This document shows, in pieces, positions 12,091 through 48,678 of a stretch of DNA of 64,000 nucleotides (positions are counted from its first letter, which is position 1; the number at the start of each line of letters is the position of its first letter). A model generated the notes under the pieces. That model did no database searches. It saw only the letters and a list, made by a program, of their open reading frames with translations, and was not told the DNA's origin. Position numbers and translations under genes: made by a program. The DNA is from Amoebophrya sp. A120 (lineage: Eukaryota; Protista; Dinoflagellata). The stretch lies in the NCBI GenBank assembly GCA_905178155.1, contig CAJINV010000004.1:6364828-6428827 (forward strand). Reading direction: 5' to 3'.

Positions 12091-15000
12091 TCACGGCGAC
12101 TTCGGATTCGAGGCCCAGTCGAAGACCGCGAAGAAGAAGCTGACGCGGCCCTTCCGCAAAAACTCCTCCGTCTTCCAGGGTCCTTGGTGGATGGCCGCGC
12201 GGCACAGCGATCCCGGCCGCTCGTGTTTATGGAAGCGTCAGGATCGAAATTGACAAAATCGAAAAATTTGTGATGCATGAAATGAATGACGCGAAATACG
12301 TGTGTTGCAGAGCAGGCAAGTGAGGCCGATTGTGAGCCTGTTTGGGGTTCTAGCTAGAGCTGCTAAAGCAGCATGAGAGAATCAGTCCTCTTTGCCTAAA
12401 CAGCATTACAAACTGGATTTAGCAGGCACCACCAGAATTTGTGATGCGCCACTTAGAAACTGGGTTCGAACTGGAATCCATTTTATGCATGACAAATTAT
12501 TTCGATTTTGTCAATTTCGATTCTGACACTTCCATAGTGCTCCCCGCCAAAGTACATCGCGAAGTCGCGCCCCGTATCAAATGCAAAAATGTCTGGGTCT
12601 GGAAGATTGGAAGACTTGTCATGCACATTTTGCACGACCCATGACGCCTGTAATGCATGATCCAGCATCACAGATTTTGTGACGGCTTTTTGATGCCTAT
12701 ACCGCATGAGGAATACCCCCTCCGCGTAGCAGAAACTGGACTCCTCTCGCTGCTTACGCAGTACAGATTTTCTTCGAATCCAAAGACAGCATGACAAGTT
12801 GCATCCTTCCAGACCCAGACATTTTTGCATTTGATACCCCGGCCGCGGGGCGATCACGCGCTTCGCCTCGGTTTGCTGCAGTTTCGGGTACTTCGAAAAC
12901 CGTTTCTCCGTGAGTTCCCTCGGCCTGCCGATGGTGTGCTCCTTGACCGCGAACTTTCGAATCGGCGCCCACCGGTCGTATCGCGGGTCTAGCGTAGCGG
13001 GTTCTACTACTACGTCCTCGCGTGTCTCGTTTTTCATCGGCACAGTAGTGGAATCATTTGTTGCAGTTCCCTGAAGATGTTCCTCCTCGACAAAAGCAGC
13101 AGCGGCAGGAACAGCAGCTCCACCTGTAGTACCCGGAGCTGGGACGCCGCTGATGAACTCCATCCCCTCGAGCAGGCGGCCGTCTCCCGCAGATGGACGG
13201 GGGGAGGCGGAGGGCGGAAGGTTTATTTGCTCTTCTCCCTCCTTTTCCCCGTCCGCACAAACTTCATTGTCCGGGTGCTGGTGCTCGGGCGGCACGACGT
13301 GATCCGCGAACTTTTCTTCTGCGAGAACTGCTCCGCCCTGGCACTCCCGCACCTCGTCGCGGATGTCCACGAGTTCAGTCGTGCAGGAAAGAAAAGAGAT
13401 CACGCCGTGCAGGTAGTAGAAGTGCTCGTCGATGTGCCACGGCGGCCCGTCCGAGCACTTCTCGTCGTCCGGGGACCGGACGATGCACTGCGCCATCCAC
13501 ACCAGCCGGTTCTCGTCCCGTTCCGGGCGGAGCATCTCCTTCGCGCACTCCGGCACCAGCAGCCACTGCTCCGCCAGGTACTTCGCCAAGTCGCACAGCC
13601 CCTTCGACAGCGTTTGGGCGAGGTCCAGGGAGATGCTCGGCTCCTCCTCCTGCTCGGAGGTTTCTTCATCATCATGCATCTTCTCTGGAGCTGCTTCTTG
13701 TACAACTTTTGGTCCATCTTCTTGAAGAACCGTCGCTGTTGGCCTACTTGTACCAGAACCTCCTTCATCTTCATCAGCCTGAACAATTTCTTCCTGGCTC
13801 TGCTCCGCTTCCTCCACGACATCTAAAAGGCGACTTTTAGCAACAAGTCCTGCTGGAGTAGACGCGGGGGCTCCACCAGAACCATTCTTGCTGTCAGTGT
13901 CATCATGATCCTCCTTCTTCTCGTCGTCCTCCTCGCCCAGTGGTTCTTGTGTGAAGAACCCGTTACTATTTCCACCCGGTGCTGCGCTAAAGGAAAAGGT
14001 CTTCATCTTGCGCAGCTGCTTATCGGTGGAGAACTTCCGGGGTGGAGGTCGGGAAGAAGCTGAAGCTGGTGCTGGAAGTTGTACAACTTCTTCTACTCCT
14101 GGAGCTTCCTTTTTCTCGTCCGCCCATGTTGAACGTGCTTCTGCTCCTTCGTGCAAAGTCGTCGCAATTGCGGTACGCAGTGGAGGAACGACCTTCGTGC
14201 CTTCGCTGTTCTTCTGCGTTTCAACATAATTATTCCCTGCTCCTTGTTCCAAAGAGCCGCCAACTACGGCCGGTGATGTTGAGGAGGCGCTAGTACTACT
14301 ACAGGGGTTATTTCTACCGCCAGAAGCAGCGCTGCACGTCTTTTGTTGACAAGAACTACTGCCAACAAAAGCAGCCTCCTGCTTGTTCTTCACACCCCGC
14401 GTCAAACTGCAGCGCAGACTTTCCGCGATCTCCTTTTCCGCGTTCTCCCACTCCTTATCGCTTAATTTCTCGTGATATGGATTGCAAAAATGTCTGGGTC
14501 TGGAAGGAAGTAACTTGTGATGCTGCATTTGGATTCCAAAAAAATCTGTATTGCATGAGCAGCAAGAGAAGTCCAGTTTGGTTTACGCGGAGAGGGGATT
14601 TCTCATGCGGAATAGGCATCAGGAAGGCCTCTAAAAATATGTGATGCTAGATCATGCATTGCAGGCCTCATGGGTCATGGAAAACCTGCATGACAAATCT
14701 CGCAGTCTTCCAGACCCAGACATATTTGCAATTCATACGTGAAGCTTTCGGCAATCAAACACCGAGGACAGCGGGAAGCTGTCGCCCGTCTTCCCGCCGC
14801 TGGCCGCGATCCGGTTGGCGCGCTTTTTCACACGCAGTAAGTCGTCGTTGTTGAACGCGTCCAGCATTTTTCGCACCGTGTCCGGCAACTGCCATTTCCC
14901 CGTACTTTGCTCCAGCTCAAAAAAGTCCTGCGCCACAACGGTCGCCGGGTAGGAGTAAGGGGACAGCGGCTTCGAATTTGCGTTTGACTGTTGTTGTATC

Positions 15001-18000: not shown

Positions 18001-19040
18001 TCGGAGGGTAAAGGGTGCATCACCGGGGCCTCGTGTTCTTGAGGCTGTGATCTACTTGCGGGAGAAGAGGACGAGGACGAAGGAGGCTGGAGCAATTCGC
18101 CGCCGTGGTTCATCTGCTGTGGCGAAACAAAGTCGCTGTTACCCAACTCCAACTTTTCTTCGGCGGAGACCAAAAATTCCTTGCCGGTTTGTCGGTCTTG
18201 CACTTGCTTTTGCTCGTCCAGCGGATTAGGATTTTTGCCATTGTAGTTCTCTTCGGAATCGTTCAGCTGTGAATAATTCGGCTCGTCTCCATTTTGTTCC
18301 CCCTCGTCGAAAAAGCTGTTGCGAGGGCGGTCACGCCCAACATCCGCATGGTCGTCTTCACCAGCATTGTTATCGCTTTCTATTTTCTCTTCTGGCGACT
18401 TTCTTTCCGATAGTAGTAAAATTTGCTGAATATTATCCCCTTCCGGGTCGTTCGTGGCTGAGAGGTTCGGGCTGGTCGATTCTTGTATCAAATGTAAAAA
18501 TGTCTGGGTCTGGAAGAATGCGCGATTTGTCATGCAGCTTTTCCATGACCCATGAGGTCTGGAATGCAGGACCTAGCATGACAGATTCTGCGCGATCTCT
18601 CTCATGCCTATCCTGCATGAGAAACTCCCTCGCGACTTGGTCAAAACTGGACGACTTTTGGTAATCATGCAAAACAGATTTTTGCATGCTTCAGATTTAG
18701 CATGACAAGTTGCATTTTTCCAGACCCAGACATTTTTACATTTGATATCTTGGCTGGGTGTCGTGGGCAAAACGGTTTCTTGGTTATCGGAAATCGAGTT
18801 CTCGCTGCCTTTCCGCTGCGTTTTTGCATCTTCGGGAGTGCTTGTTGACGACGTCCTGGGTAGTAGTTCTTGTAGCTGGGCGGGACGAGTGTCTTGATTT
18901 TTGCAAAGAATAATGTTGTCATTCATTTTGCAGGACAGATTTTCACTGTGTTCTCCGCCGGTCTGTTCTTGGGGGTCCCCGCTATTTTTCCCCGGGTTTG
19001 GGATCGCGGCCGAGTTTGGAGACGCAGTAGACTTTGGCAT
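12091..19040 (-). CDS. ~1956-aa protein: long low-complexity region plus C-terminal putative 2OG-Fe(II) oxygenase/cupin-like domain
   Basis: Removing 4 introners joins exons 19040-18745, 18486-14735, 14476-12834, 12575-12534 and 12228-12091 (5871 nt) with no stop. The C-terminus has PWHIDE...AIHQGP...GRVSFFF (HxD...H...R pattern). Confidence 0.7.
12231..12533. mobile_element. Introner family B
   Basis: IR ggaagcgtcaggatcgaaattgacaaaatcgaaa / tttcgattttgtcaatttcgattctgacacttcc, flanked tAT...ATa. Excision gives GEHYKHERP. Confidence 0.9.
12578..12833. mobile_element. Introner family A (256 bp)
   Basis: Perfect IR caaatgcaaaaatgtctgggtctggaag / cttccagacccagacatttttgcatttg, flanked tAT...ATa. 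Excision gives RPGYTGRDF. Confidence 0.92.
14479..14734. mobile_element. Introner family A (256 bp), opposite orientation to 12578
   Basis: IR ggattgcaaaaatgtctgggtctggaag / cttccagacccagacatatttgcaattc. Excision gives KLHVYHEKL. Confidence 0.92.
18489..18744. mobile_element. Introner family A (256 bp)
   Basis: IR caaatgtaaaaatgtctgggtctggaa / ttccagacccagacatttttacatttg. Excision gives SQDIQEST. Confidence 0.92.
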
Positions 19041-19685
19041 TTTTTCGGTTTGGGGAATCTACTCGCAAGCGAGTAGTAATAGCTTTTCTGTTCCTTTTAC
19101 ACTACTTTATCATACTCTACGCTGCAATTTGGGAGTCAGTGGGTATCTCTTTTTAGAGTATGTTGGAAACATAGAGCAAGGTTATAGAGGTAATATTTGT
19201 GCTCTTGCTAACGCGAAAATGGTAAACATAAAACTTCAACAAAACAACCAGATTCACACTGTGATTTGAAAAAAAAAATGAACGTGCTCACAATTCGTCC
19301 TCGTATTGGAACTTCCACTAGATTTTGCGAAGATCTTCAAGAAACTCGAGACAGTTCGAGTACTTTTTTCTTTCAGACCGTCTCTCCTGTTGAGGACATT
19401 GCGATCGTATTTTCGTGCGGCTTCATTTAGTTTTTCAAACACGTATTTGGATTTGCTTGTGCGTTCAAACGCTGATCCATGATTCCAAATTGACGTTGAT
19501 CTCAGTCATTTTCACATCATACGGAGCGCGCTCGGTGCGGAACAAACCGGAGCTATGACTAACAAACTTGGTGTCCTCCAGCTCTCGTGAATTTGTGCTG
19601 CTATAATTTTTGTCACTATATCCTTATTTCCTTTGGCTTCGATTCGATTTGCTCAACTCATTTCGATTTCGTATCATCATACATT

Positions 19686-19835
19686 TGTATCGTTACGTCA
19701 GAAGTAGTATATTGCCTGGAGCCCGCACGTCAAACTAGCCCCCAACTACAGCCGATATGCTCGTGAAGGATCGCGGGCGAAAATGTTGATCTTTTGCCGG
19801 ATCTTACGAGAGTCGAGAGCGCAGAGCTTTGCCAT
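19686..19835 (-). repeat. Split direct repeat B2 (3' terminus of the element)
   Basis: 19686-19820 is identical to 20246-20380 (135 bp); homology extends to tttgccat after a 7-nt insertion. Confidence 0.95.
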
Positions 19836-20009
19836 AGAGAGAAGGGGGCTAGGTGACGCCTGGGAGTGTGAGTGAAGTTGGAGTGAACTCTAACAAATGA
19901 TCACGAAGTTGAAATGAACAGGGCAAACCACGCACTTGTATCCCGCCCGAGGAGGCGGCGGATGAGTACGTGGGCCTGTGGCCTGGAATGAGAAGGGTGA
20001 GGAGGGTGG

Positions 20010-20245
20010 GAAAGGAAAAACAGATCGTTCTCCGTCCGCTAGGTCTGAGAATGAGGTGAATGGAGTGAGAGTGAAGTGATGGAATGAAGCGGATCACGTT
20101 TCGTTTAGCGTGGATGCGTGTCCATACCCCACGGAATGCAAACGAGCTGCCACGAGCGGCTTTACAGCCAATAACCTACTTCCGACTTCGCTCACACAAA
20201 TTGGATTCCAGACGTACTACTTCGTACTACTAAGGATCCATAATC
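20010..20245 (-). repeat. Split direct repeat A2
   Basis: 236 bp matching 33113-33348 with one mismatch seen (gtttAgcg vs gtttCgcg). Confidence 0.95.
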
Positions 20246-20388
20246 TGTATCGTTACGTCAGAAGTAGTATATTGCCTGGAGCCCGCACGTCAAACTAGCC
20301 CCCAACTACAGCCGATATGCTCGTGAAGGATCGCGGGCGAAAATGTTGATCTTTTGCCGGATCTTACGAGAGTCGAGAGCTTTGCCAT
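20246..20388 (-). repeat. Split direct repeat B1, directly abutting A2
   Basis: Copy of 19686-19835. The junction ...cataatc|tgtatcg... equals the two element termini joined together. Confidence 0.95.
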
Positions 20389-20494
20389 TTTACCACAATA
20401 GAACAGGCGGGGCGAGACGCGAGCGAGGCCGGCTATGAGAGCGCGAGCGTCTCGCAACGGGAACCAGGAATTTGTATGAAGTGTAAACTCATGC

Positions 20495-23400
20495 TCATCG
20501 GGTGACAGGTGGAAGATACAGGCTTACTTTGACACTCATTTTTTTGCATTTCGTTTTGAAATCATACACAGCACGACCGTAATCGAACTTGCACCCGCCC
20601 GCGGAGCCAGTGCCGATGTTCATCGGTATGGCGATTGTGCGGCACTTTGGTGTGAGTGACTTTTTGTTCTCTTCCTTGATGTAATTGTAGATGTTGTTCA
20701 TGTTGTGACGAAACAGGGATAGACGCGCTTCTTTCCCATCATCGGTTGCGTGGCCGTCCCAAATTGTCTTGAACGAATTTGGTTCAGCAGCCGGTGGGTT
20801 TCCCTTGCGAAACATTGTGTAAATGTTGCAAACACGTCCTGAAATCTCAAATGAACCGCATGGCTTGTCTTTGGCTGGTAAATGATATTTCGAAGCGGAA
20901 GGGAAGATAGCATACAAATCCTTTGCGATGCCCTTTGCTTGGGTGATCGGGGATGTGCATGCAATGTGCAAAAACAAATCTTCGTTGCCATGACCAAACT
21001 GACCTCTTGTGGCGCCGTGTAGAAGGTCTAGCTGAAACTTGAACTTCGCGCCCTCTTTCAGCTTCGTCACCTGCGGGCGCAGGTCCAACTTCGGGAATCT
21101 TTCCTGGGACCACATGCTGATCGGGACGGAAGAGTAGATGATGTAATCGTCGTCGGCGGTCAAGTCTTGCCCGTTGGGGAGTGCGAAGCACTGCGACCCG
21201 AACTGAAACTTGGACACCTGGTGCAGGGGTTGCAACAACTGAGCGAATTTGCCGCCGAGGCTCTGTACCACTACCGCGATTCTTGGTCTCGCGGTTTCCG
21301 GCGTCCCTCGTAGCAGCTTGTGGAGGTACTTGAGCGCTGGGAACAGCACCGTGGTGGGCGGGAGCCACCAACTGCGCTTTTCCACGAACTCGTCGTAGTT
21401 GACGAAGATTTGATCCGAGTGGTGAAACTTCTTTCCCAGTCTGGCGAAGTTGTCGGAGCTACTACTACAGAAAGCCTCTACTGATAATCCGGGCAGCCTG
21501 TTGGAGATGATGCCCCATGATCTTTTGTTGAAACGCTTTTCGGGGTTGTTGTCGTACAGGCTGCAAAGCTTGTCACGAAACCCCTCCTTGAGATCGTTGA
21601 AGTTTACTGCTTTTTTCTTGCAGAACCGCTGATCGCGCTGCTTTTTTTCGTCGGAACGCACATCGGGGCTGTCGCGTGAGTGTACGTCAGCGACTGTGTT
21701 TTCATCACCGTAGCACTTTGCCGCCACGAGTTCTATGCGCAGTTTGTCGATCATGTCGGCAATGTTGAGTGACGCAGCATGTAAATCCGGTGAGGCGCAG
21801 CTGCCTTTGTTGCACAGCCGCTTCGCGCACGGGTTGTCGGTGTAGTACAACACGAGTTTATCAGTGAAGTCGACATCACCGCACCCGCTGGCTTCGTGGA
21901 TGATGAAGAACGGCGCCAGTGATTCCAGGCCGTTGATGTCGCAGTCGCGAAACTGCTCGGGCCACGTGCCCTTGTACGCGATGCCGTTGACCGTCCCGCC
22001 CCAGCCCGCCGTGGTGGCGGCATCACCGTAGACGACCACGAGGATGTCAGGGTCGATCGACCTGATGAATACATCCCCGAACTCGAGTACTTCGGCGCGC
22101 CAAAGAAACGAAGCGTGGCCATTGTAGTAAACTTTCGCGTACGGTTTTCGGGCGAGAACGTCGCGCCACCACCGCACTTCCTCGAATGAAGCCCAGCTGA
22201 CTTCGATCCAGGGGTTGTGCTTCGGGTTGTTCTGCCACACCTTGTACACCCCACTGCTGTTAAGGTCGTACTGAATGGCGTGCAGTGGGCCGCGATTCAC
22301 TACGAAAGTGATGCTCTGCAGCTTGCCAGCGCATTTTGCGAGGTCTTTTGCCTTGCAGCGGTAGTTGGATTCGGGGGACTTGAGGTAGTCCATGAATTCG
22401 CACAAGTAATCGTGGTACTTCACCCGTCGTTCCTCTTCGACGTACAGCCGCATGGTGTCGGTGTGGAGTTCGAACCCCAGCCACGGCATGTGTCGGGTTG
22501 GTTTGATGAGTTTCCCCGCGACGACATGTAGATCGAAGCCAAGATTAGACAGGAAGTAGAACTGCCGGCTCAAATCGTCCTCAGCGGCTTGGAAGGACAA
22601 CGGGTCGGATGTGACTATGTTTCTTATGTCATCGACATAATCGAAACGCTTCGCCAGAATTCCCGACTGTACTCCCAGTTCCAAGGCGTGTTTGACCATA
22701 CTGCGGGGTGGAGTTTGTGAGGTGATTACAAAGATGACTTGCATGAATTTTGAAAGATGATGCGAGGTATGAATCGAGTTTGTCATGCTAACGAAAATCA
22801 AAACTGTACCGATCATTGATGCCCGGGGCAGGGCCTACGCCAAACGGAACATATAAGTGTGTTCCGATTTCGCCCGTCGTGTCGTCGCCTGTGTAGCAGC
22901 CCAACAGTCGTCGGCACGATGCGGCAATCATGTAGTGGCTGAAACAATCTTTCAGGTCGATTCCCGTGAGGTAGCAGTTGGGAGTGACGTGCTCGAGCAG
23001 CTGCCACCAGCCGCTGTAGTCCACTGGCTCGCTGTAAATGGACTGACTCACGCGCGAGACTTTGTTCGACCAGTCGGTGACTAACCGTGCTTTCGTGCCG
23101 CCCTTCTGCATGAGTACGGTGGACGGTGCCCGCGTGAGATCCGCTGGGTAGATGACTTGTTGTTTTTTGAAGTCCCAGACTAGATTCTTCTGGTCCTGCC
23201 GTAGCTCGTTGTAGTCGTACAACACCAGCTTATTCGCAGTTTTGAACCGATAGATTTCGTTCAAAAACTGTTCGCGGTTATCTTCCGCACCGGAGTAATT
23301 GTTTTGCTGCGTCGGTTGAAATTCCGTGTCGGTGAAAGTGAAAGACACGCCCGAGAACCACTCCCGGACCACATCTGGGCTTACACCCCAGCGGATAGCG

Positions 23401-23642
23401 TTGTAGATGTTGAATGTTAAACCATCAAGCGCATGCTGGTCTTCTTGTTCGCGCCACGGGTCGGTTGGGCCGGGCTGGGACTTGAGGAACCCTGGGAGGT
23501 CCTCCGGACATGTCGGGAGGCCTGCTGCAAGGTAATCTTCAAAGGTGTACCTTGGTGCGGGTGTCAAGCCTAACCTCTTCTCATGCGCTGTGTGCTCGAG
23601 GTGCGCCGGAAGCGCCCGCGTCAGGCATGAGCGGAATGGCAT
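20495..23642 (-). CDS. Pol: reverse transcriptase, RNase H, degenerate adenine-methyltransferase-like domain and Macro domain; 2 exons
   Basis: RT: ARLVTDWS, IDLKDCFSH, VPFGVGPAP, YVDD, WLG. RNase H: YGDAA..GWG, INGLE, YTDN, NTVADVHSR. MT-like: VEAFCS..SWWLPP..IAVVV. Macro: AKGIAKDLYAIFP..IAIPMNIGTGSAGG. GT-AG intron 22701-22809 joins INDR|MVKH. Confidence 0.92.
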
Positions 23643-23938
23643 TCTGAGATCTTTTTGCTGTGAGTTTCACAAATGAAGATGAGGGATTGGCGCGGTGGGT
23701 TTTGATGGGAGTACTCGTTGTTTTTTCCCGACCTACACTCGAAACGCTCGCTGAATTGAGGTCGCTCAGATGCGGCTGTTGAAAAGACGTCACTCAGAGA
23801 AAGCGCTCGGCCGTTGACGTGGCAACAACAGAGAGAACAGGTTAAACGACGACGACGCCGGTAACTACTGTCCTCCGAGCAGTGGCATGACCACGGTGAA
23901 TCGTTTTCATTTGAAAAAAGGATACGAAGAAATAATGT

Positions 23939-26900
23939 TCACTTGCGCACCGCAGATGGATTCAGTCCGAGTTTCTTTGCAACGCGAGGAAATGCGAAGA
24001 AATTGACTTCGCCCGTGTTCAACTGGTTTGCGAGTTTCGGTGCGTACTTCAGAATGTCGTTGCTAGTGAAGTATTCTTCTTGCAGACTGTTATGTAGCTG
24101 AGTAGGCTGCTTAATTTTCTCGCGAGCATCGCGGGGTAGCGCCCACACCCGCTCAAGCTGTTGTAGCGTGGTGATTGCTCTGGCGTGTTGTACTTCTTTT
24201 TCGACGAAGCTGTCCACGATTTTGTGGAGCTGCAACGGTTCGATGGGAGCATATCTCTGATCGAGCATGTCCGCATTTCTCCAGCCACCCTGGAGATATG
24301 CTATTTTCCCGATAGCATCATGCTGTCGATAGAAAGTGGCGCCGCCGTGACGCAGCGACACTGAACCTTCGAAATTAGCTTTCCGGTGATTCACGAAGGC
24401 GCTTTTCGTGTCCAGTCGCACGCGGTCCTTCCCAAGCCTCTCGCCGCGGGTCGGGATTCTGTTCAAGCCGATGGTCACGAAGAACGGATGACTTTCGGCG
24501 TACGCGGTCGATTTGTGATGCAGAATGAGCGCCGTACTGAATTTCGTCCACTTCTGTATGAGCGACGCCATGCTCTTCGGCACGACGCAAAAACTACCCC
24601 GACCGTACTTGTCGTTTTTTGCGAACCTGAACAAAATGATAGTGGTATTGTGAATTTCAGTGCGCAGTACGATGAGGATGCGTTATGAATTTTTGCATGA
24701 TAAATGACAAAGTTGCACCTGATGTGGAAGGTTGGTATCCCGTCTTTCATAGAGAAGTCGTTCCGGTTGAACTGGCGGAGTTCGTCGTTTCTTCTCACGC
24801 CGAAATAACCGACGCAAATGATGACGGCTACTTGCAACTTGATCGCCGCTGCAAGAAAGTTGCGTTTGTCAAAATGCTGATGACAGATCCACTTGGGGTT
24901 GTCCCAATTGTCGACTTCCCCCGCGAATGCAGCGTCGAACTCCTTCTGCAGGTTTCTGATGATTACTGAAATCTCGAAGAAATCCGGGATCACCTTCTTT
25001 GCTGCGACAGCGTGATAAGCGTTCAGCTTCAATCCCCGCCATGCGCGATAGAAAAATTTTGATTTGTCAGAACAACTGTACGACGACAAGTGCGGGCGGC
25101 TACTGTTGAAAATGTTTATCGCTGCGGATAACGTGAGGCACGCGCCCCATCGCACTTTGCCGTCCGTTTCTTTGATGGCCGGGCTGTTTTCTTCTTTCTT
25201 CATGATTTTGGTGAAAGCGCAGAAGAAGGTGATGCACTCCATCTCGTTCTGCACCGGCCACAACACGCGACCAACGAAGTCGCAAATTAGTGGTACGTAG
25301 CGGCTCAGCGCCTGCTGATATGATTTCGCGGTTGACGCTGCGATTGACGAGTTGTTCACCATGACCAACTCTTCTGCTAGCTCATCGCGCACCTTGTTGT
25401 CCACTGGTAGCGAGTCGAAGAAGTCGGAGGCAGCGGGAAATAGTACCAAATCTAGGGATGATGAATCACCTGAGTATTTGTCCCATTTGTCTGCCTTTCG
25501 GTGAAGTTTAATTTGGTTGGCGGTCGACAGGGATGAATTCCCGAGAATTTCCTGCACCGTTTTTTGAATGTCGTCTGTGTCGGAGTTCTCCGCGGACGAA
25601 TGAAATTCCGATCCGACGGCACTGTCAGAAGTGAAGCCGTCGTCGCTTCCATCGCTGTGGTCGCTGAGAGCGATGACACCACGACTGACGTACTCGTCCA
25701 CGTCGACGAGATCGTCGCCATCATCGTGAGCCTCCTCGTCATGCGCTGCGTCGCGGCGGTAGTGCATGATTTCAATTTGCGAGCGGACCGCTTGCCTTTC
25801 TTCGAGTTGCTTCTTGTTCAGCTCGACGAGAGCGGAGTCAAGAGCGGCCTCCAGAATCTCGTCGTCGGACGTTCGTGCAAACGAAGATGAAGAGGACTGC
25901 GCGCCTGCTTCGCGCTTGGACTTCTTTGCGGCTGGTGAGGCAGCAGCGGCTTTCTTCCTAGCATCTGCTTTGCCCTTCAGGTAGGCTTCCCTCGCGACCG
26001 CCTCGACGTCTACGAACGGTTGTTGTTGCTTTGGCTCCTCTGCCGCACTGCTTTGGTTCAAGAAATCGAACATGTCACTCTGAACCGGCTGCTTCGCGGT
26101 TTGTGAAGCGACAGCAGCGGCCAGCTTTGCGTCTGAGCGCTGCGCCGCTGGTAGATCCTGACGGAGTCGATCCTTCAACTCCGGCCTGCGGAAGAACATG
26201 CTAGGATCGAACATCTCTCTTCGATCGTTTTGATGATGGTTCGGACTGCTCGCTGTTAGTTTCGCGAATTCGTCGCTGTTCAGCCAGGTTGCATACAGCC
26301 CGGTGGACCACTTGTAGCTGATCGGCCTGAGAGAGGGTGGGGAGTCCGTTGCACTGGTTGTTTCCCCCGGTGGTGCCCAGTACGATGGTGGCGGGATTGC
26401 CGAGGACGGGGTCTCTTGGTCCCAGCAGCTGTGGCGCAGCACCAGCAGTGCTGCTGCTAGCTGAGCTTGACGAAGCACCCGCACTTTGTCTTGCGCTGCG
26501 TGAAGATGATGAAGCAGCTGACGATGACGCAGAATTTAATGATGATGAGTTTGTGATTATGAGGTCGTGTGTGAAGTGTAGTTGATTCACTTCCTGCAAC
26601 GAATTCGCAGTCGATTCCACGAGTGCGATGTTGGCGGCCTGTCGCAGCGGGGCTGCAGCTTCCGCTGCCGCGTGCGCACGCCGCTGCTCTTCTTCCGCCC
26701 GCTGTAACACGCGAGCTTCGAAGGCCTCTGCGTCGCGGCGAATCCGATCGAGATCTGGCCCTACAACGACACTGGGCGAAAAGCTGGAAGTTGTTTTTGC
26801 GAGCTGGATACTTTCTGCTCGCGCTCGGTGTTGTAGTCGCGATTATTCCTGACGAGGTACTCGCGATAAACACCGTTGCGGAGATACCACCTCTCGACTC

Positions 26901-27248
26901 TGAGTGTGCCCCGGAGTGCGTTGAGCTTGGCGATGCTCCGCACTTCGTATCGCGATGTCGAAGGAGTTTCACCCGTGCCGCCGCTGGCGTCGTACGTGCC
27001 GGCTACCAAGGATTTGGCTACTTGGAAGCTGCCGCAGCTGACTAATTTTTGTTGTCCGGGCAGCACTCTGTCCACACTGTGACGCCGCGCTCAGCGGCAG
27101 ACGAGCCGGTGTCTGGCTGTATTGTGACACTAGCAACGGTGGCTTCTCTGCATGGGGTATAATTGAAAACAGCCTTCACGAAATCGTAAGTTTTGCTTGA
27201 TAGCTTATGCTTTCTTTCGCTCAAGAATTGCTCCACATTCTCGCTCAT
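23939..27248 (-). CDS. Tyrosine recombinase with a long N-terminal extension, multi-exon
   Basis: Motifs STAKSYQ, GYFGVRRNDEL (R), HIR|FAKND (K), VSLRHGGAT (R) and GGWRNADMLDQRY (W, Y). GT-AG intron 24627-24718. Exons upstream of 26484 (ORFs 26201, 26761, 27042) are unresolved, so the start is tentative. Confidence 0.85.
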
Positions 27249-27796
27249 TTTGCATTTTGCTATGGCAAGAATAGGAGCGGAAACACGACGACCAGTGCGT
27301 ACGAGACACGTTTGTACGAATGAAAAAGAAACATGACAACGAATGAAAATGAAAACATGAAGACGGCAGAACATCCGGATGAAATGACGGCACGACGCGT
27401 TCAAGAAACTGACAAAAGTTTCAAGGCGCGAAGGTACTAAAGTGATGCTTTCCGAGGCGTTTTAAAATGGGACGCACTGTGCATTTCTTTCTTCAAAGAC
27501 AGTGTTAAAGTAAATTGCTATTTTTGTCGACTAAGAAACTGCTCATGCATTTCATCGTCGACCGTGCGACGTGAAATCGAGACGCAGCTTGCAGCTGCGA
27601 AACACGTGTTCACTCAAATCTGTGATGCTGTACAGCTGGGTAAAATGAAGGCGAGGCTTGTTATTGAGCTGTTGTAAATTTTTTCTGTAATCTCTGATAA
27701 TAATCCCTTGACTTTAGTGCAAGTTTTTTGATTCAGATGATGAAGCCAAATGAAGCTTATTGTCTGAAAATGTCATAAGATTTCGTGTAAATTTGT

Positions 27797-30284
27797 TTAC
27801 GTGCGGGGCCGCTTGTTGGTGCGGTAGTTTGAGTCTTTGAACTCACACTGCTCGCGCCAGTGGTATTGTCCTGAACGACCACGCTCCTTACAAATTTCAC
27901 ACTCCACAACACGTTCATTCTTCGCGGCGATACAGTGACTGTAACCACTTTGATGCGTAGCGTATCCTCTGCCAGCTAAAAAACAGCTCTTACACTTGTT
28001 CGCTCCCCCCGCAAGCCATTTGCTGGTCGCTTTTTCGTCTTTGTTGTAGCACTGCTGCAGCGCTGCTTGCGCAGCCTGGGCATCTTGTTTTAAGATTGCC
28101 GTGGTGAGGATCGAATCGATTTCCTTGTTCGTGTGGCGGTCCACACCGACGTACGACGGAGCCTGTGCGGCGCCACCTTGGTGGCCACCCTTTCCGCCCT
28201 GGTGCGTGTTCGCGATGCCGCCACCGCCGCCTCCACCCTTGTTCTTGCTACCTGAGGGCGGTTGCAATGACAAGACTTTGCGGCGCAAGGCGAGATGTAT
28301 CAGAATGAAGAGCGTGTTTTGCATGACAAACATGACGGCGCGTTTCGCCTGAAAATATGAATTTGTGACGCAAGCAAGAATGAAAGTGATTCGAAGGTGG
28401 TTGATAGTGATACCCTTGTTGGTCTTTTCGCCATGCGAAGACGCGCCGCCGCTGCCGGAATTGGCGGTCTTGTTGGGTTTGTCGTTCTTGTTTTCGTGGA
28501 ACACCATGGATTTTAACTGCCTGGCTGTGGCGATATTGCTCGCCGCGCACATGAGATAGCGCGGGGCAAACTCTAAATTCCAGAGCGCACGCTTGGCCGG
28601 AGTTATGGTGCCCCTGAATTTCACCTCCTTACAAAAACTCCTGTATTGTGAGGCGAAATGAATTTGAGTGAAGAACTTTTATGCGAAATGAAATGAAATG
28701 AGAATCATGAGTACGCATTACAAATTGCATAACTTATCAACCAGAAAACTACCTGATTGTCGAGTAGCAGGCGAAGCTGATGTTTGCCGGTAAGGTGATC
28801 ATGGTGGTCTTCCCGTGGAGTTTTTCGGATTTGGGTGCAGCCATATTATGGCACTCTAATAAGTACTCAATGGCAAATTTAAATTTTGCCGCGAGCAAAC
28901 TGCACGCTTCGTCCTCCCCGTAGCACAAAATGACTTTGTCCAGGTAGTCCTTGCAGGTCTGCAGCGAGCCACCGTTGGTCGGCAAAATCAGACTCTACAA
29001 CAATTTTTGCATGAAGATTTTCATGTTGAATTCCCGATGAAATTTGACATGCACCTCGAAAAAATTGATAGCAGACATCCTGACGATTACCGAAATGGAG
29101 GTAAGCAAATGCTGTACCTTCCATTTGTAATGGGTATTCGCTTTCCGTTGCAAGTCCGAGATCGCGATGCGGGTCGACGCGGACACCGTACCCGACGCTT
29201 CGACCTGCGCCGCCGCGAGCACCGTCTGTGGGTCCATCCGGGTGGTGTGATCGGTGTTTTCAAAATTCGGCCGCTTCAAAACCTGAAACAAGGGTTGAAA
29301 ACGACGAATGGATAAATGAGGTGAGTTTGTGATGTGTGTGAACATGCATCAGTGATGAAAGTGAAAATGAAGGGCACAGCTTTACCTTCAATCCCGCCAC
29401 TAGTTCTTTGGGGTCGAGCGCGGACAGTTTGGCGCACCACTTCACTTCGGACACGATCAACGGGATCACGCTTGCATCACCGCTGCTTTCCGCCAAATTC
29501 TTTTTGACTACCCCCGCGAGGTCCTGGGCGTCCTGAACGTTACACACCGCGCAAATGTTCTGGGTCTCGTCGAGGCTGTGGTGAAGTTTTACACGTGTTT
29601 GAAACTTGTGATGCGTATTTCCGTGGTGCAAAAATGAAAAGCACTGTCATGGTGTGGGGTGAAAATGACATGATTTTAATCGGAGTACATGTTGAATTTT
29701 GACATCCAGGACGAAAAGGCTCCCACTCCGCTTTTCTTCACGCAGTCGTAGCAGGCCGCCGCGGTGCACCCTTGGCGCCGCAGGCAGCAGAACTGAATGC
29801 CCTTCTCCGGTTTTTCGGTCCGGCAAAAAGCGCATGGGTAGTCGGCCAACCGCGTGTTGGCTGCGGCGGGACCCCCTACTGCGGCTGCCATCTTGTCTAC
29901 TTCCGGGTAATCGATACCAAGCAGATCGAAGAACTCTTTACAAATGCGTTGGTGATTGTGCAGCTCTAAAACGAAATGGATGTGGTGTAAGATGATTTCG
30001 AGTTTGTCTTCCAGATAGTGCAACAACCAAATACTGATGTGGTCACGCGAGAACTGGCCGATCGGATTGATCAGCAGGTCGATGAATGGATTGCGGTCCG
30101 AGTGCTGGTGGAAGAAAGCAAGCGACTCAGGCGTGATATAGCGACTGTGGTACGGATTATTGGTTTCTTGAACATCAGTGCTCACCCACACAATTTCTTC
30201 TACTTCTTCTTCTCCAATGCTGTTTATTGTAGAATCCGTATCGCTAACCACAGTGACATCAAAGTTTTTCTTAACCCAAGACAT
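27797..30284 (-). CDS. Gag-like protein, ~624 aa: N-terminal RING/PHD-like Cys cluster and two C-terminal CxxC..H..C fingers; 6 exons
   Basis: GT-AG introns 29576-29688, 29283-29385, 28995-29117, 28641-28752 and 28252-28413 give one 1875-nt ORF. Cys motifs CAFC..CC..C..CYDC..CAVC, CKSC-x8-H-x6-C and CEIC-x9-H-x4-C. Confidence 0.75.
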
Positions 30285-30444
30285 GTTGAAGCACAACTTC
30301 AGATAATTGGTCGCTGTTAGAATCGAATTTTTTTCGTACTGAAATGATTGCTTTTTCCTTTTCAAAACTGCTCCTTCGAATTGAAATGAGTACGGAGCTG
30401 AAGTGTTCTAATGGTGAATGGAGAGTGACAACCGTCTAGCAGTT

Positions 30445-31136
30445 TCAGTTCAACGCCACGCGTGGCGCAGTCGCGATCACTGCTTGCGTCTGCGGCATTC
30501 CGTCGATTGTGTGGCCGATCAAGGTGGTCCACCCTGTCGGCAGTCCCAGACCGATGGCCGTGACATCGGTCATGCTCCGCACGAAGAACTTGAAACTCGC
30601 GCACGGGGGCATGAGGATCACGTTGAACTCCATCAACATGTGCCGCATCCGCAAATTCGCCGGGGCTCCTTGCAGCGTGTGTTGGATGAACCCATCCAAC
30701 TGCTCGCTCATGAGATTGAACGCTTCGATGCGGATGTGCGGCTCCACGCGGGAGCGCACGAACTGCTCGCAGACGTCCCCGATATTCACCAACGTGGCCG
30801 CTCCGAACACTAAAGCGCTGCACACCTGGCGTGAGTTGGTGTTTGGTACATGCTTGAAGTGTTGAGCTGTGTGAATATTTGACCATGCATGAATCTTTTT
30901 TGAAAATGATAAGAAAACGAGACCTTGAAATCCATCTGATTGGTAATTCCCGACAAAGTTTTGATTTTTTGCAGCAGCAGCAACTCGCTCGAAGTGCACT
31001 TCGTATCATACTCCAAAACTGCATAGCGCAAACCCGCGGGTAACTCGGGCATGATGACCTCGTTTTCCTTCGGGCAGCGCGGGCAGCGTGCGGGGGCCGT
31101 TGTAACGCCACGCACAGCCACCGAGTTTTCAGTCAT
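30445..31136 (-). CDS. Retroelement accessory gene (hypothetical, N-terminal CxxC), probably 2 exons
   Basis: Exon MTENSV..CPRC plus exon VCSALVFG..RVALN after a cag acceptor; donor site unresolved. Confidence 0.45.
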
Positions 31137-31138
31137 TT

Positions 31139-31513
31139 TTACTTGTGTTCGCCTTCGAAAATTTTCTTGTGATCTTTGCACGAAGACGCGGAAGCTGAGC
31201 TAGAAGAAGAAGAGGGTGCCTGCTTGTCGCGCAATTTTTTGATCTTGTTCAACTCTTTGACATGATTCAACCAGCAGGGCAGTGTGCTCACACACTCCTT
31301 CCTCGGGTACGCGGACAAAAAGCAGTTCTTGCACGGAGTCTCGTGCTTTTTGAAGAACTCTTCGCGCGCTTTTTTCTTCTCCAGCGTGTCTTTGTCGGAC
31401 GCATTGATAGCATTAAGAAGGAGAGAAGCTCTGTTGTCGACATCGGAAATGTGACACAGGCGGCCCAGCATGTTGGCCATTTCTTTATCAACTTTCTCGC
31501 TTTGTTGTGACAT
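31139..31513 (-). CDS. Retroelement accessory gene, 124 aa, putative Zn-binding (CKNC..C..C..H)
   Basis: ATG-initiated ORF with PCKNCFLSAYPRKECVSTLPCWLNH, which resembles the Gag-like CKSCFLAG finger. Confidence 0.55.
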   Translation of the reverse strand: MSQQSEKVDKEMANMLGRLCHISDVDNRASLLLNAINASDKDTLEKKKAREEFFKKHETPCKNCFLSAYPRKECVSTLPCWLNHVKELNKIKKLRDKQAPSSSSSSASASSCKDHKKIFEGEHK

Positions 31514-31690
31514 TTTGATCTGAAACTGCAGGTGAAAGTGAGTAGGTAGTCTAAAGAATTGCTAAGCTGATAGGCGAGCAATAAATTTAGAACGCATAAT
31601 GATAGTGAAGTGAAAACCATGAAAGAAATGATAATTGTAGATTGAAGATCATGAGCACTTTGGCGCTAGCGAATGAAAGCACCCGACGCC

Positions 31691-32519
31691 TTAGTAGAAC
31701 AATTTTTCTTGTTCGGTGGTGTTCCGCGTGGTGACAGCTGTCACACCATCTTCGGTGATTTCTTCCGTCACGGTGTTGCGGTCACGCGAGAAAATTTTCT
31801 TCATGGTACGCGTGCGACCATCCGCCGACTTTTCGCCCGAGCACCTCACCAAGGACTGCTGGACCTTTTGAAGTGAATGTTTTTTAATCGCATGAAAATT
31901 CTTCTAGCGCAGTGGTGTCATGTTCGATCCACGGGTTCGTGTGCAACACAATTCCCAACAGACGACACTGATTATACACCTTGCGTTCGTACACTTCTCC
32001 GATGACTTTCGCCGTGTCTGCGATGACCTTCGCCGGCTGTAACAGCTTCGTGAACAGCTCGACGATCGAGCGCAGCTGCACGAAAATCTTTTTTGTGTTG
32101 CTCATTCCCCCTTGGGCGCGCCTGTTGCTCTCCGCTCCCTGCATGAGCGCGTAAAAAGCGAACCCGGTGAGCAGGGCCTCGCACCAGGTCAACTGGAACG
32201 TGAAGCGAAAGATGCAGGGGAAGGTGAAGATCCTGCGATTAATTTTTGAGATGAATCTGTGTGAAGTGACAATGAATGAAAACATGATCACTGTGAATGA
32301 CATGAAGTGAAGTCTGAAAGTATGATACCGATACGCCGAGGACGCGTAGAAAACGCAGATTCCCACATAGTGTTCGCGTTCCACGAAAACGCGCTTCACC
32401 CATCCAGAGAGCACCAGAATGGTGGCTAGCCCCACGAGAAATGGGGTGAGGATTTCGTCCTGCAGCATGAACAAGATCAACTTGTCCGCTGGGGCAAGGT
32501 CCGGCGTCGGTGGTGACAT
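31691..32519 (-). CDS. Retroelement accessory gene: small multi-pass membrane protein, 3 exons
   Basis: GT-AG introns 32233-32334 and 31865-31979 give a clean ORF. Hydrophobic segments ILTPFLVGLATILVLSGWV, YVGICVFYASSAIFTFPCIF and WCEALLTGFAFYALM. Confidence 0.6.
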
Positions 32520-32558
32520 TTTGATGTGAGACAATGAAATGAGAACAGGAAGTCGAAG

Positions 32559-32861
32559 CTAATTTTTCTTTTGCTTCTTCGGCGCGGGCTCGGTCTCCAC
32601 CTCGTCTTTTGGAATAGCCAGCTGTTGATGTTCGTCGCTGAAAATCAGAAAGCCGCTCGGCATGGGTCTAACTTTCTTTCCCAGAACTGTTATGTCATTG
32701 CTGTGCGTTCCAAAATACAAAGGATAAGCGGAGACAAACGGCTCAGTGGTGCCGTCCCATTTCGTTAGAGTGAAATGCGTTTGGCCCGGGCCAAATTGAA
32801 AATATACCGCCCGCAAGTCAGCAGGCATTTTGTTAGTTGACGAAGCTACAGGTGAATTCAT
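32559..32861 (-). CDS. Retroelement accessory gene, 100 aa, with C-terminal NLS-like PAPKKQKK
   Basis: ATG-initiated ORF of normal complexity; first gene after repeat A1. Confidence 0.55.
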   Translation of the reverse strand: MNSPVASSTNKMPADLRAVYFQFGPGQTHFTLTKWDGTTEPFVSAYPLYFGTHSNDITVLGKKVRPMPSGFLIFSDEHQQLAIPKDEVETEPAPKKQKKN

Positions 32862-33112
32862 TGAGGTTGAATTCGTAAGCTTGATCGCAGCATGTAACCG
32901 TACTCAAAGATCAGATTCCAGGTTCTTGAGTGCTCCTGATTGACGCTGCTCCCACTCTCTGTCTCAGTACTCCAGAACAACAACGAAAAACTGTTTCTAT
33001 CCATCCTGATCAGCGGTCAGCGTTCTAAACAGCATCTTTTTATCTGTGTTCAAGTTCAAGCGTTCACGATTACGAAAATGAGATGTTGAGTGACATCGGT
33101 ACAGACGAGCAA

Positions 33113-33348
33113 GAAAGGAAAAACAGATCGTTCTCCGTCCGCTAGGTCTGAGAATGAGGTGAATGGAGTGAGAGTGAAGTGATGGAATGAAGCGGATCAC
33201 GTTTCGTTTCGCGTGGATGCGTGTCCATACCCCACGGAATGCAAACGAGCTGCCACGAGCGGCTTTACAGCCAATAACCTACTTCCGACTTCGCTCACAC
33301 AAATTGGATTCCAGACGTACTACTTCGTACTACTAAGGATCCATAATC
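33113..33348 (-). repeat. Split direct repeat A1 (5' terminus of the element)
   Basis: Near-identical to 20010-20245. Confidence 0.95.
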
Positions 33349-33478
33349 GCATCGGGCCGAAATCGAGCCAACTGCGAAGAAAATAAACATCATCAGGTCG
33401 ACATCACAGCGACACAAAGTAGAAGCAATCCATTTTTCTACCTTCAGAACGCAACATGGCAACGAAGGTACATCCCCT

Positions 33479-39543: not shown

Positions 39544-40507
39544 TCAGGCCTTCACAAACTCATACACCCCGTTCTCCTCGTCAATGTCCAGGTCGCAGTC
39601 GAACGCCTTGCACATTTCGAACAGCAATTGCCGCGAGCCTTTCTTCTCCACGTCGTCCGTGAACACGGAGTAAGCCTTATCCCGTGTAAAACCGTCCCCA
39701 ACCCAGAGTTATTGGATGCCTAAAATGTTTCTCATGCGCAAACCCATGAGGAGCGTTTTCTAGTCGTGTTTTGAGATTTGTCATGCTCGAATCAGCATGA
39801 TAAGCCCGAGCTGTGATGCTGCTTCACTAGCTAAAGTTACGACTGCATTAAATGCTGAAATTTGTCATGCGCAGCACCCAAAGCTTTTTGATTTGTCTAG
39901 CAGATTTCCCACATTGACTCTGGGGAAGTGGGCACGTTTTTACTCAGCATACGTCTCCCCTTCCACAAGCGAGGCCAGGTTCATTTCCAGGTCCAGTTTC
40001 CAATCCTCGCGGATTTGCTTGTCAGGGTCAAGTATCAACGGTAAATATCCCTGGATGTCTGGCAGACTGTAAACTTGTCATGCAGGTTTTCCATGACCCC
40101 TGAGTTCTGGAATGCGGGGACTAGCATGCCAGACTCTGCTTGGTCTCTATCATGCCTATCCTGCATGAGAAACTCCCTCCCAACGTGGTCGAAAGTGGAC
40201 ACCAGCTTTTGGCACTCATGCAACACAGATTTTTGCATGATTCGAATTTAGCATGACAAGTTGCGATCTTCCAGACCCAGACATATTTGCAATCCATATC
40301 GAGCGACTTGCTGTCGAAATTCGCCTTCGCATCGTACGCGAAGTCGTATTCCTCCTCCCGATCTGTATTCGTACTGCCTGCTGCAGCTGCTCCGAGGGGC
40401 GGATTTGTTTGCTGTGGGAGGAGGAATTGCTGGGTGGAGGTGGTCATCTGTCGCTGATTTACATGACTTTCAGGTTGTACTATATGTCCAGAAGTCGCCC
40501 CGCCCAC
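39544..40507 (-). CDS. Hypothetical protein, 3 exons
   Basis: Exons ..YDFAYDAKANFDSKSLD / LPDIQGYLPLILDPDK..GETY / KAYSVFTDD..YEFVKA*, separated by two introners. Confidence 0.55.
39681..39948. mobile_element. Introner family C
   Basis: Imperfect IR gtaaaaccgtccccaacccagagttattg / cattgactctggggaagtgggcacgtttttac, flanked tAT...ATa. Excision gives GETY|KAYS. Confidence 0.75.
40049..40295. mobile_element. Introner family A with one decayed IR
   Basis: Interior is closely similar to 18489-18744. Right IR intact, left IR degenerate. Confidence 0.8.
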
Positions 40508-46075: not shown

Positions 46076-48678
46076 ATACGGGTGGTGCAGCGATGTTGAT
46101 AGTGCTCGTCCCTGGCTCATTTTGGTCGGTAGAAAGGATTTCTGCATTCGCCAGATCCGCCTCGTTTTCATCTTGCTCGGCGAGGACAGATATTTCCTTG
46201 TCCTCATCTCCGCCCACAGAAAGCACCGGCTGTTGTATAATGTCCTCTTCGCCAAGAACCTCTTCTTCACCAGCATCTTCGGAACTACCGCTACTACTAC
46301 CCTGCTCCGACGCTTGGTCCTCGTCTTCCCCGCTGATATCCAGCTCTTCGTTCATGTCGTCCGTCACGTATTTCAGCATCTCCCGCCGCATCGTGCTGTC
46401 AAAGGGCACCCCGGTCTGCATACAAAACTCCTCGGGAAACCGGGGAAGACAAAACTCGTCCACAAAGGGGTTCTTCGTGGCGTCTTCTAACCCCTTTTGC
46501 AGGTGCGTCAGGGAGGCCTGTGGAGTTGTTTTCGACCGATTACGAATTTAGAAAAAGTAAAAGAATGAGAATCCGAAAGCGAAACATTTTCTAAAGTCTG
46601 CAAAAATCTTTATCCAAAAAGAGAAAACCTATCCATTACGTTCAGGACGGTGTCCTTGAGCTGTATTGCGTGCATCCCTTTGTAAGCCCCCTCTACGTTA
46701 TGCCGCCCCTTCTTCCCCCCGAACGCCAGCCCGACCGACTGGACGACGTGGCGGCCGTCGCTGGACATAAAGGGTTTCCGCCGGTAGCACTTGTCGGTGC
46801 CCGTGGCCCAAAAGTGCCACCGCGGTTTTAACGCCCGGATCAACTCGCTCACCGCGGGAGAGGCGTTGAATTCGTAATTTTGCGGCAAAAAGTCCCGGTC
46901 CCGATGCAACTCCTCGGCGGGAACCAGGCTGTTTTTTTATTTGGCTTTTGATGATGTTCTGGTGGTGGTGACCGACCAGCATGGTTCATGTGGTTGCAGC
47001 ACAAAGTAAAGATGTAGTAAGTTGCGCCAGCACTAATATGCTGTCCAAATTCGGACACTCCTGGTTGTACACTCCTGGTTGTAAAAACGTTGCATATATT
47101 TTCTTATGAGTACCTTGTCAGCCCGCAGGGTCCCTCGGAGGTCAAGAGCAAATCTACCGGTTTTCCGTCTGCCAACTCATATGGATTGCAACTATGTCTG
47201 GGTCTGGAAGGTCGCAACTTGTCATGCTGTTTTTGGTTTCTAGGGAAATTTGTATTGCATGACCAGCAAGAGGGGTCCAGTTTGTGCTGTGCAGACAATG
47301 GACTTCTCATGCGGAAGGCGCATCAGGAAGCCCTCTAAAAGTCTGTGATGCTCGGCCATGCACTACAGCCATCATGGGTCATAAGAAATATGCATGACAA
47401 GTCTTGCACTCTTCCAGACCCAGACATATTTGCATTTGATAACTCAATAATGTGTTCGATGATCGGGCGGTTGTAAGCCAGGCCCGGGCTGCCGTCGGCC
47501 TGCGCCCGAAAATTACACCGGCAAAATTGCAGCGTTTTGTCAACCTCCTCCAATGGCTGGCCCACCCCCCACCCGTTGAACGTGAACCAGTCGATCTGCC
47601 CGTGGCAGATGTTGTCCTTATCCGGGTGCACAATCCGCGGAATGGTTCCGGACAGGTAGGCCACGCGCATGCCCTGGATCTCCTTGATGCCGCACCCGCC
47701 AATGTAGTGCAGGTTGTCGGTCACCTTCATCCCGTCGCTGAAGCCCTTCTTGGACATGTGTGGCTTGTGAAACGCGGTGGAATCCTGGTCCAGGAAAAAC
47801 AGGGGGATGTCGCACTTAATGCTGCCGTTCTGTGGTATGTGATAAATCAAATTTTTCTTTCTTGTTCACAAAGAACAGCGAGCTTGTTGAGCTGCCAGAG
47901 AAAGTGAAGAAGCAGCCTTGAGGACAAAAGTCGCGCTTATCGAGATCCATGCAACGTGCACGCGCACGCGTGCAACAAAAAATGTTTTCCATGACGAATA
48001 CACTGCCCTATGAAAAAATAAACGAATACCGCCATGAAGGGGGCCATCCGCGCGGCATTGGTGTCCGACATGAACTTCCCAACGCAGAAACAAACATCCA
48101 GCGGCCCCTTGCTTTTGTGCACAGCCGCAATTCGAGTGTACAGCGGTTGCAGATCGCCGTCGCACGTTCCCGCGAACAGAAGGCGGCGAACAAACGGCTT
48201 CGGTTTCGGAGGTCCTCGCTGGTTGCTTGCAATTATAGTACTGCTTGACGTCGCTGGTTGATGTTCAACTTCGACTTTCTGTTTTTTCTGCAGCGGTGGC
48301 TGCGACACTGGCTCCTCACGGTCGAAGGGGTCGTCTATGCGAGTGCACAAACCCCCTTCCCCGTTATTTGTCATGCAAAATGCAAAATCCAGTTGCTGCC
48401 TTGTGGCACTGTTTGCATGACGAAATCATCTGGAGGCCCAAATACTACTAAAATCAACGCATGAGCTTGTCATGCACAGCCTTCACGCGTGCTGGTGTTT
48501 CTATCGCTGTTCACGCCGTACAATTTATTACAAATGAGGGGGAGAGGGAGTTGTGCACCACTCTCGTATCATCGCTCCGCCGCTTGGTCTTCCGGCTCGC
48601 TGCGGGATCGATACTGCTGTTTCCTGCCGACGCCATGTTGTCGCTGCTTGTGGGCGGGGGCGGCGGCGGTGGGGGCAT
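46076..48678 (-). CDS. CWF19L1: CWF19-like 1/Drn1 N-terminal metallophosphoesterase-like domain protein; CwfJ C-terminal domains not seen
   Basis: Motifs LLFAGTCDG, VHKSKGPLDVCFCVGKF, NLHYIGGCG, RVAYLSG, VDLLLTSE, VSELIRALKPRWHF and YRRKPF. GT-AG introns 47830-48029, 46929-47113 and 46518-46639, plus introners at 48339 and 47183. Confidence 0.8.
47183..47438. mobile_element. Introner family A (256 bp), same orientation as 14479
   Basis: IR atgtctgggtctggaag / cttccagacccagacat. Excision gives IIELYELADGK. Confidence 0.92.
48339..48565. mobile_element. Introner, E-like family
   Basis: IR gtgcacaaacccccttccccgttatttgt / acaaatgagggggagagggagttgtgcac, flanked tAT...GTa (one repeat diverged). 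Excision joins RRSDD to DDPF in frame. Confidence 0.75.

Follow-up and report, generated by a model that had tools for sequence, protein, structure and literature searches.

An in-frame fusion of Pol to a macrodomain of predicted ALC1-like class in a likely tyrosine-recombinase retrotransposon of Amoebophrya

In the 64,000-nucleotide stretch of Amoebophrya sp. A120 DNA that was analysed here as a whole (the window), the Pol frame of a retrotransposon ends in a domain that is predicted to be a macrodomain of ALC1-like class. The element is about 13.7 kb long, spanning about 19686–33348. In the macrodomain, the outline of the pocket survives and every residue known to act in the ALC1-like class is replaced. 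The features of the element, in minus-strand order, are:

33113..33348, minus strand: repeat A1, the 5′ end of the element, identical to repeat A2 at 235 of 236 positions
27797..28678, minus strand: gag-like frame with a Cys/His knuckle-like C-terminus, read by eye, in the expected place
23939..26535, minus strand: two frames of a probable tyrosine recombinase, with the motifs RRNDEL, AKND, SLRHGG, GGW and Y
24627..24718, minus strand: inferred 92-nt GT..AG intron in the recombinase; its acceptor is the only one of three tested that keeps the frame open
22810..23642, minus strand: Pol exon 1, the N-terminal half of the RT (DLKDCFSH..VPFG), with an ATG at 23642; 32.0 bits
22701..22809, minus strand: inferred 109-nt GT..AG intron inside the RT, GC 0.41
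21665..22700, minus strand: 5′ part of Pol exon 2, with the C-terminal half of the RT, the tether and RNase H (RH); 80.7 bits
21200..21538, minus strand: probable but weak, degenerate DIRS-type methyltransferase-like (MT) region (EAFCS ... WLPPT)
20498..21046, minus strand: macrodomain of predicted ALC1/SCO6735-like class, residues 597–779 of the ORF (its last 183 codons)
20243..20380, minus strand: repeat B1, which abuts A2 and is 98.6% identical to B2 over 143 nt
20010..20245, minus strand: repeat A2, 236 nt
19683..19820, minus strand: repeat B2, the element's 3′ end

The macrodomain lies within a 779-codon stop-to-stop frame (window 20495–22834, minus strand), and the motifs quoted in an earlier sequence-only reading of this DNA (DLL..LFLHIACTSPITQAKGIAKDLYAIFP..VCNIYT..IAIPMNIGTGSAGG..DY) were all found within this one frame. 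That reading had placed the domain at 20495..21030; the domain itself stands, and its start moves 16 nt further upstream, to 21046, as set by the first predicted strand (KFKFQ). The domain ends six residues ahead of the stop codon (20495–20497). Since the frame is free of stops from RNase H to the macrodomain, the fusion holds at the DNA level, in agreement with the earlier placement of the macrodomain at the C-terminus of a tyrosine-recombinase (YR)-type Pol. After splicing of the RT intron, a single RT–RH–MT-like–macro protein would arise. It is extremely improbable that the macrodomain is instead a gene of its own or an exon further downstream, outside Pol. Such an arrangement would suit the two or more inferred introns of the element, the drop in GC3 at the domain boundary and the sole contig of the RNA runs over Pol, which falls entirely within the macrodomain; however, the 779 codons run without a stop, the linker has a strong coding character (GC3 0.86), Met is absent at the start of the macrodomain, and the domain is located within the terminal repeats.

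Direct searches with the macrodomain against Pfam, PHROG and NCBIfam, and a single-sequence phmmer search of the PDB, gave no match. The PF01661 search that had been put forward as a check left the query without a match; only one of 11 relatives matched, below the cut-off, indicating that Pfam is insensitive to this subfamily. Among 1.84 billion representatives, phmmer reported 13 matches at E ≤ 0.001 (best 1.6e-7), 11 of which form one macro-motif family. The other two, P0008 and P0014, are unrelated and were dropped. The 11 relatives have the HQCNC..G[LV][AS]..FP..Y..NL[FY]AQ motifs in common, and ten of them also carry PxxIGCG[LS]AGG, the remaining one (P0012) being cut short; all 11 match PHROG 335. 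A profile of the query and these 11 relatives (profile A2) matched solved structures in the order Bt1257 (E 2e-9), DarG (5e-9), SCO6735 (1.4e-8), Poa1p and TARG1 (1e-4), followed by alphavirus macros. A query-free profile of 78 relatives scored 59.1 bits on the macrodomain and did not report the reversed ORF.

A structural model of the macrodomain built on a 12-row alignment reached a pLDDT of 76.4, and the fold model depends on that alignment, as a single-sequence model failed (pLDDT 32.7). Its best structural match by VIA was DarG (Z 13.7, rmsd 2.6 Å, 136 residues), with Z scores of 13.2 for Poa1p, 12.9 for Bt1257 (2AFC) and 10.8 for TARG1. Foldseek gave a probability of 1.00 for Poa1p, TARG1 and DarG. 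Its top matches were Poa1p structures, including an H23A mutant, and the best viral fold match was the Marseillevirus UDG-macro protein A0A481YRS7 (E 1.4e-9, TM 0.66). As compared to SCO6735 and Bt1257, the macrodomain has two inserts. The profile, Foldseek and VIA thus support the macro fold of TARG1/DarG/phage (ALC1-like) class that had been recognised from the sequence, and both profile and structure searches found matches where the lack of any macro-fold match had been named as grounds for abandoning it.

Within the pocket, H623, G635 and the loop G741-T-G-S-A-G-G are retained. Gly is found at the G635 column in 77 of the 78 relatives and His at the H623 column in 62, and the phosphate loop keeps G741, G743, G746 and G747 (G741-x-G743, A745-G-G). 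D603 is probably the adenine Asp (Asp at that column in 52 of 78), with an ambiguous register, as it is followed by a nine-residue insert of low confidence and is replaced by Gln in one alignment. The position of Gln85/Lys, at which 77 of 78 relatives have Gln and none has Met, is occupied by Met674, and that of the conserved Trp by Lys749 (Trp in 74 of 78). The Asn27 position is Thr627, or, if the other register is taken, Cys626; Asn occurs there in 68 of 78 relatives, a count that, like those for the phosphate loop, is partly circular, because the viral rows (80 kept of 339) were retrieved by two motif patterns covering the IGCGLAGG and HQCNC columns. The Gln and Trp counts are free of this circularity. 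In 11 rows chosen by similarity alone (ten phmmer matches and P0016, with P0012 excluded), Gln and Trp are each found in 11 of 11 and Asn in 9 of 11.

Thus, the catalytic Lys of TARG1 and DarG is missing, with Met in its place, and the GTGSAGG loop has no acidic residue; the corresponding phosphate loop is where we take Asp125 of TARG1 to sit. The reversal of ADP-ribosylation in the manner of TARG1/DarG, as proposed in the sequence-only reading, therefore finds no support in the sequence, given the Met at the Lys/Gln85 position and the Thr or Cys at that of Asn27. Passages of PMC9411070 describe Gln85 of SCO6735 as the equivalent of Lys84 in TARG1 and Lys80 in DarG, and report that Q85A abolishes the activity of SCO6735 and N27S nearly does so.

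The nearest sequences are 25–36% identical by phmmer. They are short proteins that stand alone and come from metagenomes and from viral contigs, part of which bear giant-virus genome labels; further kin include a Marseillevirus fusion, the marine-protist transcript P0010 and the Yihiella protein P0016. The latter, a dinoflagellate protein of 666 aa, combines a weakly PARP-like domain (Pfam PARP, E 0.017) with the same macro subfamily, has Cys at the Asn27 position and is possibly a writer–eraser fusion. On a viral contig (L002:2909-4456), the same subfamily ends a 515-aa Lys/Pro-repeat protein, and this gene adjoins a capsid gene of giant-virus type, as judged by eye. A quick tree placed the query, on the longest branch, in a group of ten with viral and dinoflagellate kinds (support 81); this group lacks resolution, so it identifies no donor. 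GC3 is 0.73 ahead of the domain boundary and 0.52 beyond it (96/183 in the macrodomain vs 404/551 in upstream Pol, Fisher p 3.8e-7), as compared to 0.58–0.83 in the other frames and a median of 0.29 in the viral homologues. This lower GC3 is compatible with a later capture and is no proof of it.

The survey of other YR elements that had been suggested was carried out on at least 120 metagenome loci, with adjacent DNA for 80; in this small sample, no macrodomain was found near the YR-type RTs. Word-indexed protein searches with residues 595–779 (124 candidates) and 45–779 (7991 scored) gave nothing significant. Among longer proteins, a profile search found one PARP-like/macro fusion in 7998 candidates, which is not a Pol, and the absence of the fusion elsewhere is weakly supported by this result. 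The macro profile, run over 79 loci with an in-frame RT motif, gave nothing better than E 0.021 among the matches listed, and Pfam Macro, which is insensitive to the subfamily, matched 0 of 32 longer YR-type Pols. On the viral side, Pol found no related element in the viral contigs, and no RT/RH was seen within 4 kb of 80 viral macro loci, again a small sample. Of two scans of the viral contigs for RT motifs, one yielded no match and the other five, which are due to chance.

The element itself is a split-direct-repeat, likely tyrosine-recombinase retrotransposon that works like the PAT type, its membership being partly supported. On the minus strand, the repeats are arranged as A1..B1-A2-spacer-B2, as split direct repeats, with A2 and B2 set apart by a unique spacer of about 190 nt. 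Passages of PMC6681497 ascribe this plan to PAT, Ngaro and VIPER, and take near-identity of the repeats as a sign of recent activity. With its near-identical direct repeats, the retrotransposon is young. In run X1, one DNA run that is possibly the source of the window, the element body has a depth of 40, its flanks 41–47 and the repeats are doubled; the flank-like depth of the body together with the doubled repeats indicates that the element is single copy in this run. GATT is common to the left junction (33346–33350) and the internal B1/A2 junction (20243–20246), and the right end (19683–19690) continues with AATG. No target duplication was seen at the element junctions, which is compatible with insertion by a recombinase. 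The element starts where the RNA contig of an Mpv17/PMP22 host gene ends (33346). Position 19812 is G in the window but A in the contigs of the DNA run and of all three RNA-like runs, and is probably a base error of the window assembly. Elsewhere in the window, introner-like inserts of 250–300 nt with inverted ends are repeated (12574–12836, 14474–14739, 18485–18749, 40032–40300, 47179–47441 and 56627–56923), two of which are spliced out in the RNA-like runs (joints 14470–14738 and 18480–18748).

The Pol assignment is based on both exons. Removal of the 109-nt intron yields a 1012-aa Pol that scores 127.5 bits against the DIRS-type profile on which the two exons were scored, and is collinear, without a gap at the junction. 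Exon 2 carries YVDD (22639), YGDAAT (22030) and NTVADVHSR (21700), and hhalign aligned it with the same profile at 99.0% (E 8e-18). This profile consists of 32 frames that carry YxDD and extend 350 residues or more past the motif, drawn from at least 120 metagenome loci matching the RT motif pattern, with adjacent DNA for 80; Pfam RVT_1 matches 32 of the 32 frames and Dam matches 8. For exon 1, the nearest named cluster in the Atlas is RVT_1 (score 0.91, 174 features in common). A quick tree placed the RT/RH with 26 YR-type rows vs three LTR-like rows, on a long branch (2.89) and with support for no subgroup. The RT/RH is at most 25% identical to the sampled kin, and divergence extends throughout the element. 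In the MT-like region, motif spacing fits and the glocal z is 2.8 (1 of 150 shuffles as high), but HMMER scored it no higher than shuffles, hhalign returned nothing for it, and the ESM Atlas gave no usable match with the RH/MT region. An MT domain after RNase H is present in DIRS/PAT and absent from Ngaro/VIPER, according to part of PMC3266345.

In the recombinase, the alignment places the motifs R, S-x-R, W and Y in order (glocal z 3.2, reached by 0 of 60 shuffles), with Val replacing His ahead of x-x-R; HMMER did not score it above shuffles, and Pfam and PDB searches were non-significant. The gag-like frame matched nothing in Pfam or NCBIfam and had weak PHROG matches only. Upstream of it lie about 4.5 kb of additional short frames (28700–33100, minus strand), which have no significant Pfam match and include a Cys-rich, finger-like frame (29676–30407), a hydrophobic one (31884–32558) and one of high GC3 (30445–31005); several look broken by AT-rich stretches. 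The young retrotransposon has putative introns inside both its RT and its recombinase, which would have had to persist through reverse transcription.

Three RNA-like runs from one sample have host introns spliced and cover the flanking genes; their contigs indicate presence and say nothing of level or absence. Across the 19 bins of the element, run X3 covers one, X8 three and X9 none. The X3 contig is 183 nt long, has a depth of 3 and lies inside the macrodomain (20770–20952). No contig of X3, X8 or X9 spans the RT intron or the RNase H–macrodomain fusion, and three raw-read runs of 2026 gave 0, 0 and 3 reads, too few for a test. A contig over the A2–B2 spacer, B2 and the host flank (19570–19950) is present in all three RNA-like runs at depths of 81.8, 14.5 and 12.9, with the element body barely covered; it may be a transcript that reads out of repeat A2, or a small RNA. 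Rfam gave no match over the 3′ repeats.

As to function, we tentatively favour a captured, likely non-catalytic ADP-ribose binder at the end of Pol that steers or shields the Pol–cDNA complex, which, as read from the sequence, we consider a good possibility, if short of probable. Because the cutting residues of characterised relatives are replaced, the macrodomain is likely to bind ADP-ribose and not to take it off. It would have been captured from the giant-virus/dinoflagellate macro subfamily, as its lower GC3 than the rest of Pol may suggest, and its pocket would still accommodate ADP-ribose. Binding might then steer the Pol–cDNA complex toward ADP-ribosylated chromatin, by analogy with the chromodomain of some integrases, or might alternatively shield ADP-ribosylated cDNA or Pol against host readers. 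The binder is favoured by the completeness of a macrodomain that is about 25% identical to its kin, though one stop could remove a terminal domain, and by the setting of this completeness in an element whose repeats are 98.6–99.6% identical. If the capture was recent, as the low GC3 allows, the divergence would stem from the donor and be uninformative on selection in the element, and the odd residues may reflect fast evolution, since the whole element is divergent. Moreover, as Gln85 of SCO6735 touches the distal ribose and is retained also in ALC1 homologues (passages of PMC9411070), Met674 could weaken ADP-ribose binding as well.

In line with the counter-defence module proposed in the sequence-only reading, an active eraser of ADP-ribose, or an O-acetyl-ADP-ribose deacetylase, would protect element RNA, single-stranded cDNA or Pol from host ADP-ribosylation by an altered chemistry. 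The ALC1-like class has switched its catalytic residues repeatedly (Lys/Asp, Lys alone, Gln plus water), as parts of PMC9411070 set out, His623 is retained, the Poa1p structures lead the Foldseek list, and Thr627 is similar to Ser26 of TARG1. Asn is also missing in two probable dinoflagellate relatives, one of them the protein with the weakly PARP-like domain. However, no Lys, Gln or acidic residue stands at any known acting position of the class, and none of the 78 relatives has Met at the Gln column, so that we regard catalysis as unlikely. Rather doubtful, too, is a passenger or decaying capture that lacks a present ADP-ribose function and became fixed in a single lineage of elements. Such a relic would fit the longest terminal branch of the macro tree (2.32), the replacement of multiple conserved positions, the lowest GC3 among the measured frames, the degenerate MT-like region adjacent to it, the single copy of the element and the lack of the fusion in any relative found. 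Yet the frame is intact through the last strand and retains the structural and pocket glycines, and neutral decay this far should have introduced stops or frameshifts.

The binder that we favour differs from each of its known counterparts. SCO6735 (5E3B) and Bt1257 (2FG1, 2AFC) resemble the query in profile match, fold, His, VxN strand and PxxIGxGxAGG loop, but stand alone and have Gln85 and Asn27, whereas the query is fused to Pol and has Met, Thr/Cys and the two inserts. DarG (5M3I) and TARG1 (4J5S) share the fold; the query lacks their catalytic Lys and has no acidic residue in the phosphate loop. The giant-virus, phage and dinoflagellate macros of the HQCNC..IGCGLAGG type (P0003–P0016, L001–L080) are nearest, but keep Gln and Trp. 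The PAT- and VIPER-like YR elements have the A1..B1-A2-B2 repeats, a DIRS-type RT/RH and, given the probable recombinase here, a recombinase frame apart from Pol in common with the present one (parts of PMC6681497 and PMC3266345), which is unlike them in its macrodomain cargo, its 13.7-kb length, many extra 5′ frames, inferred RT and YR introns and A2–B2 spacer. Passages of PMC5890265 already describe a cargo domain in the Pol of a dinoflagellate DIRS element, SymbioDIRS-Dnmt3, the cargo there being Dnmt3 rather than a macrodomain, and part of PMC3537659 describes a DIRS-type element of 9 kb that has additional 5′ frames and whose methylase is inactive.

The sequence-only reading knew of no macrodomain in a DIRS-order Pol, and our literature searches, with subscription papers, Repbase and supplements beyond their scope, found none either. 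The word "macro" is absent from the main text of PMC3537659, PMC5408684 and bioRxiv 10.64898/2026.05.21.726589, and passages of 10.1101/2021.11.30.470311, PMC8120803 and PMC3266345 hold no such Pol–macrodomain fusion. PMC7789003 mentions LTR and non-LTR retrotransposons, its main text being without DIRS, recombinase or macro. For retroelements in general, macrodomains have already been published: epsilon-like fish endogenous retroviruses bear macrodomain frames (a passage of PMC4977317, citing Basta et al. 2009). Those retroviruses are of integrase type and have the macrodomain as an additional reading frame, whereas the present element is of recombinase type and has it fused in frame to Pol. 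A first DIRS-order retrotransposon with a macrodomain, derived from the giant-virus/dinoflagellate kind and converted to reading ADP-ribose or to erasing it by a new chemistry, is a claim that we make with considerable doubt.

The value of the finding is limited by its being a single example, with related elements not found and catalytic residues changed. Single-stranded DNA is the known substrate of DarT-type ADP-ribosylation, which macrodomains of this class reverse. DIRS-order elements replicate via single-stranded cDNA, as the title of PMC7192593 has it. With the macrodomain, which is small and expressible, one could ask if host ADP-ribose marks are read or erased by retroelements. The fusion would carry macro capture beyond retroviruses into another order of retroelements, here in a protist, and, if true, would imply together with the independent integrase-type captures that retroelements throughout the eukaryotes are subject to host ADP-ribosylation.
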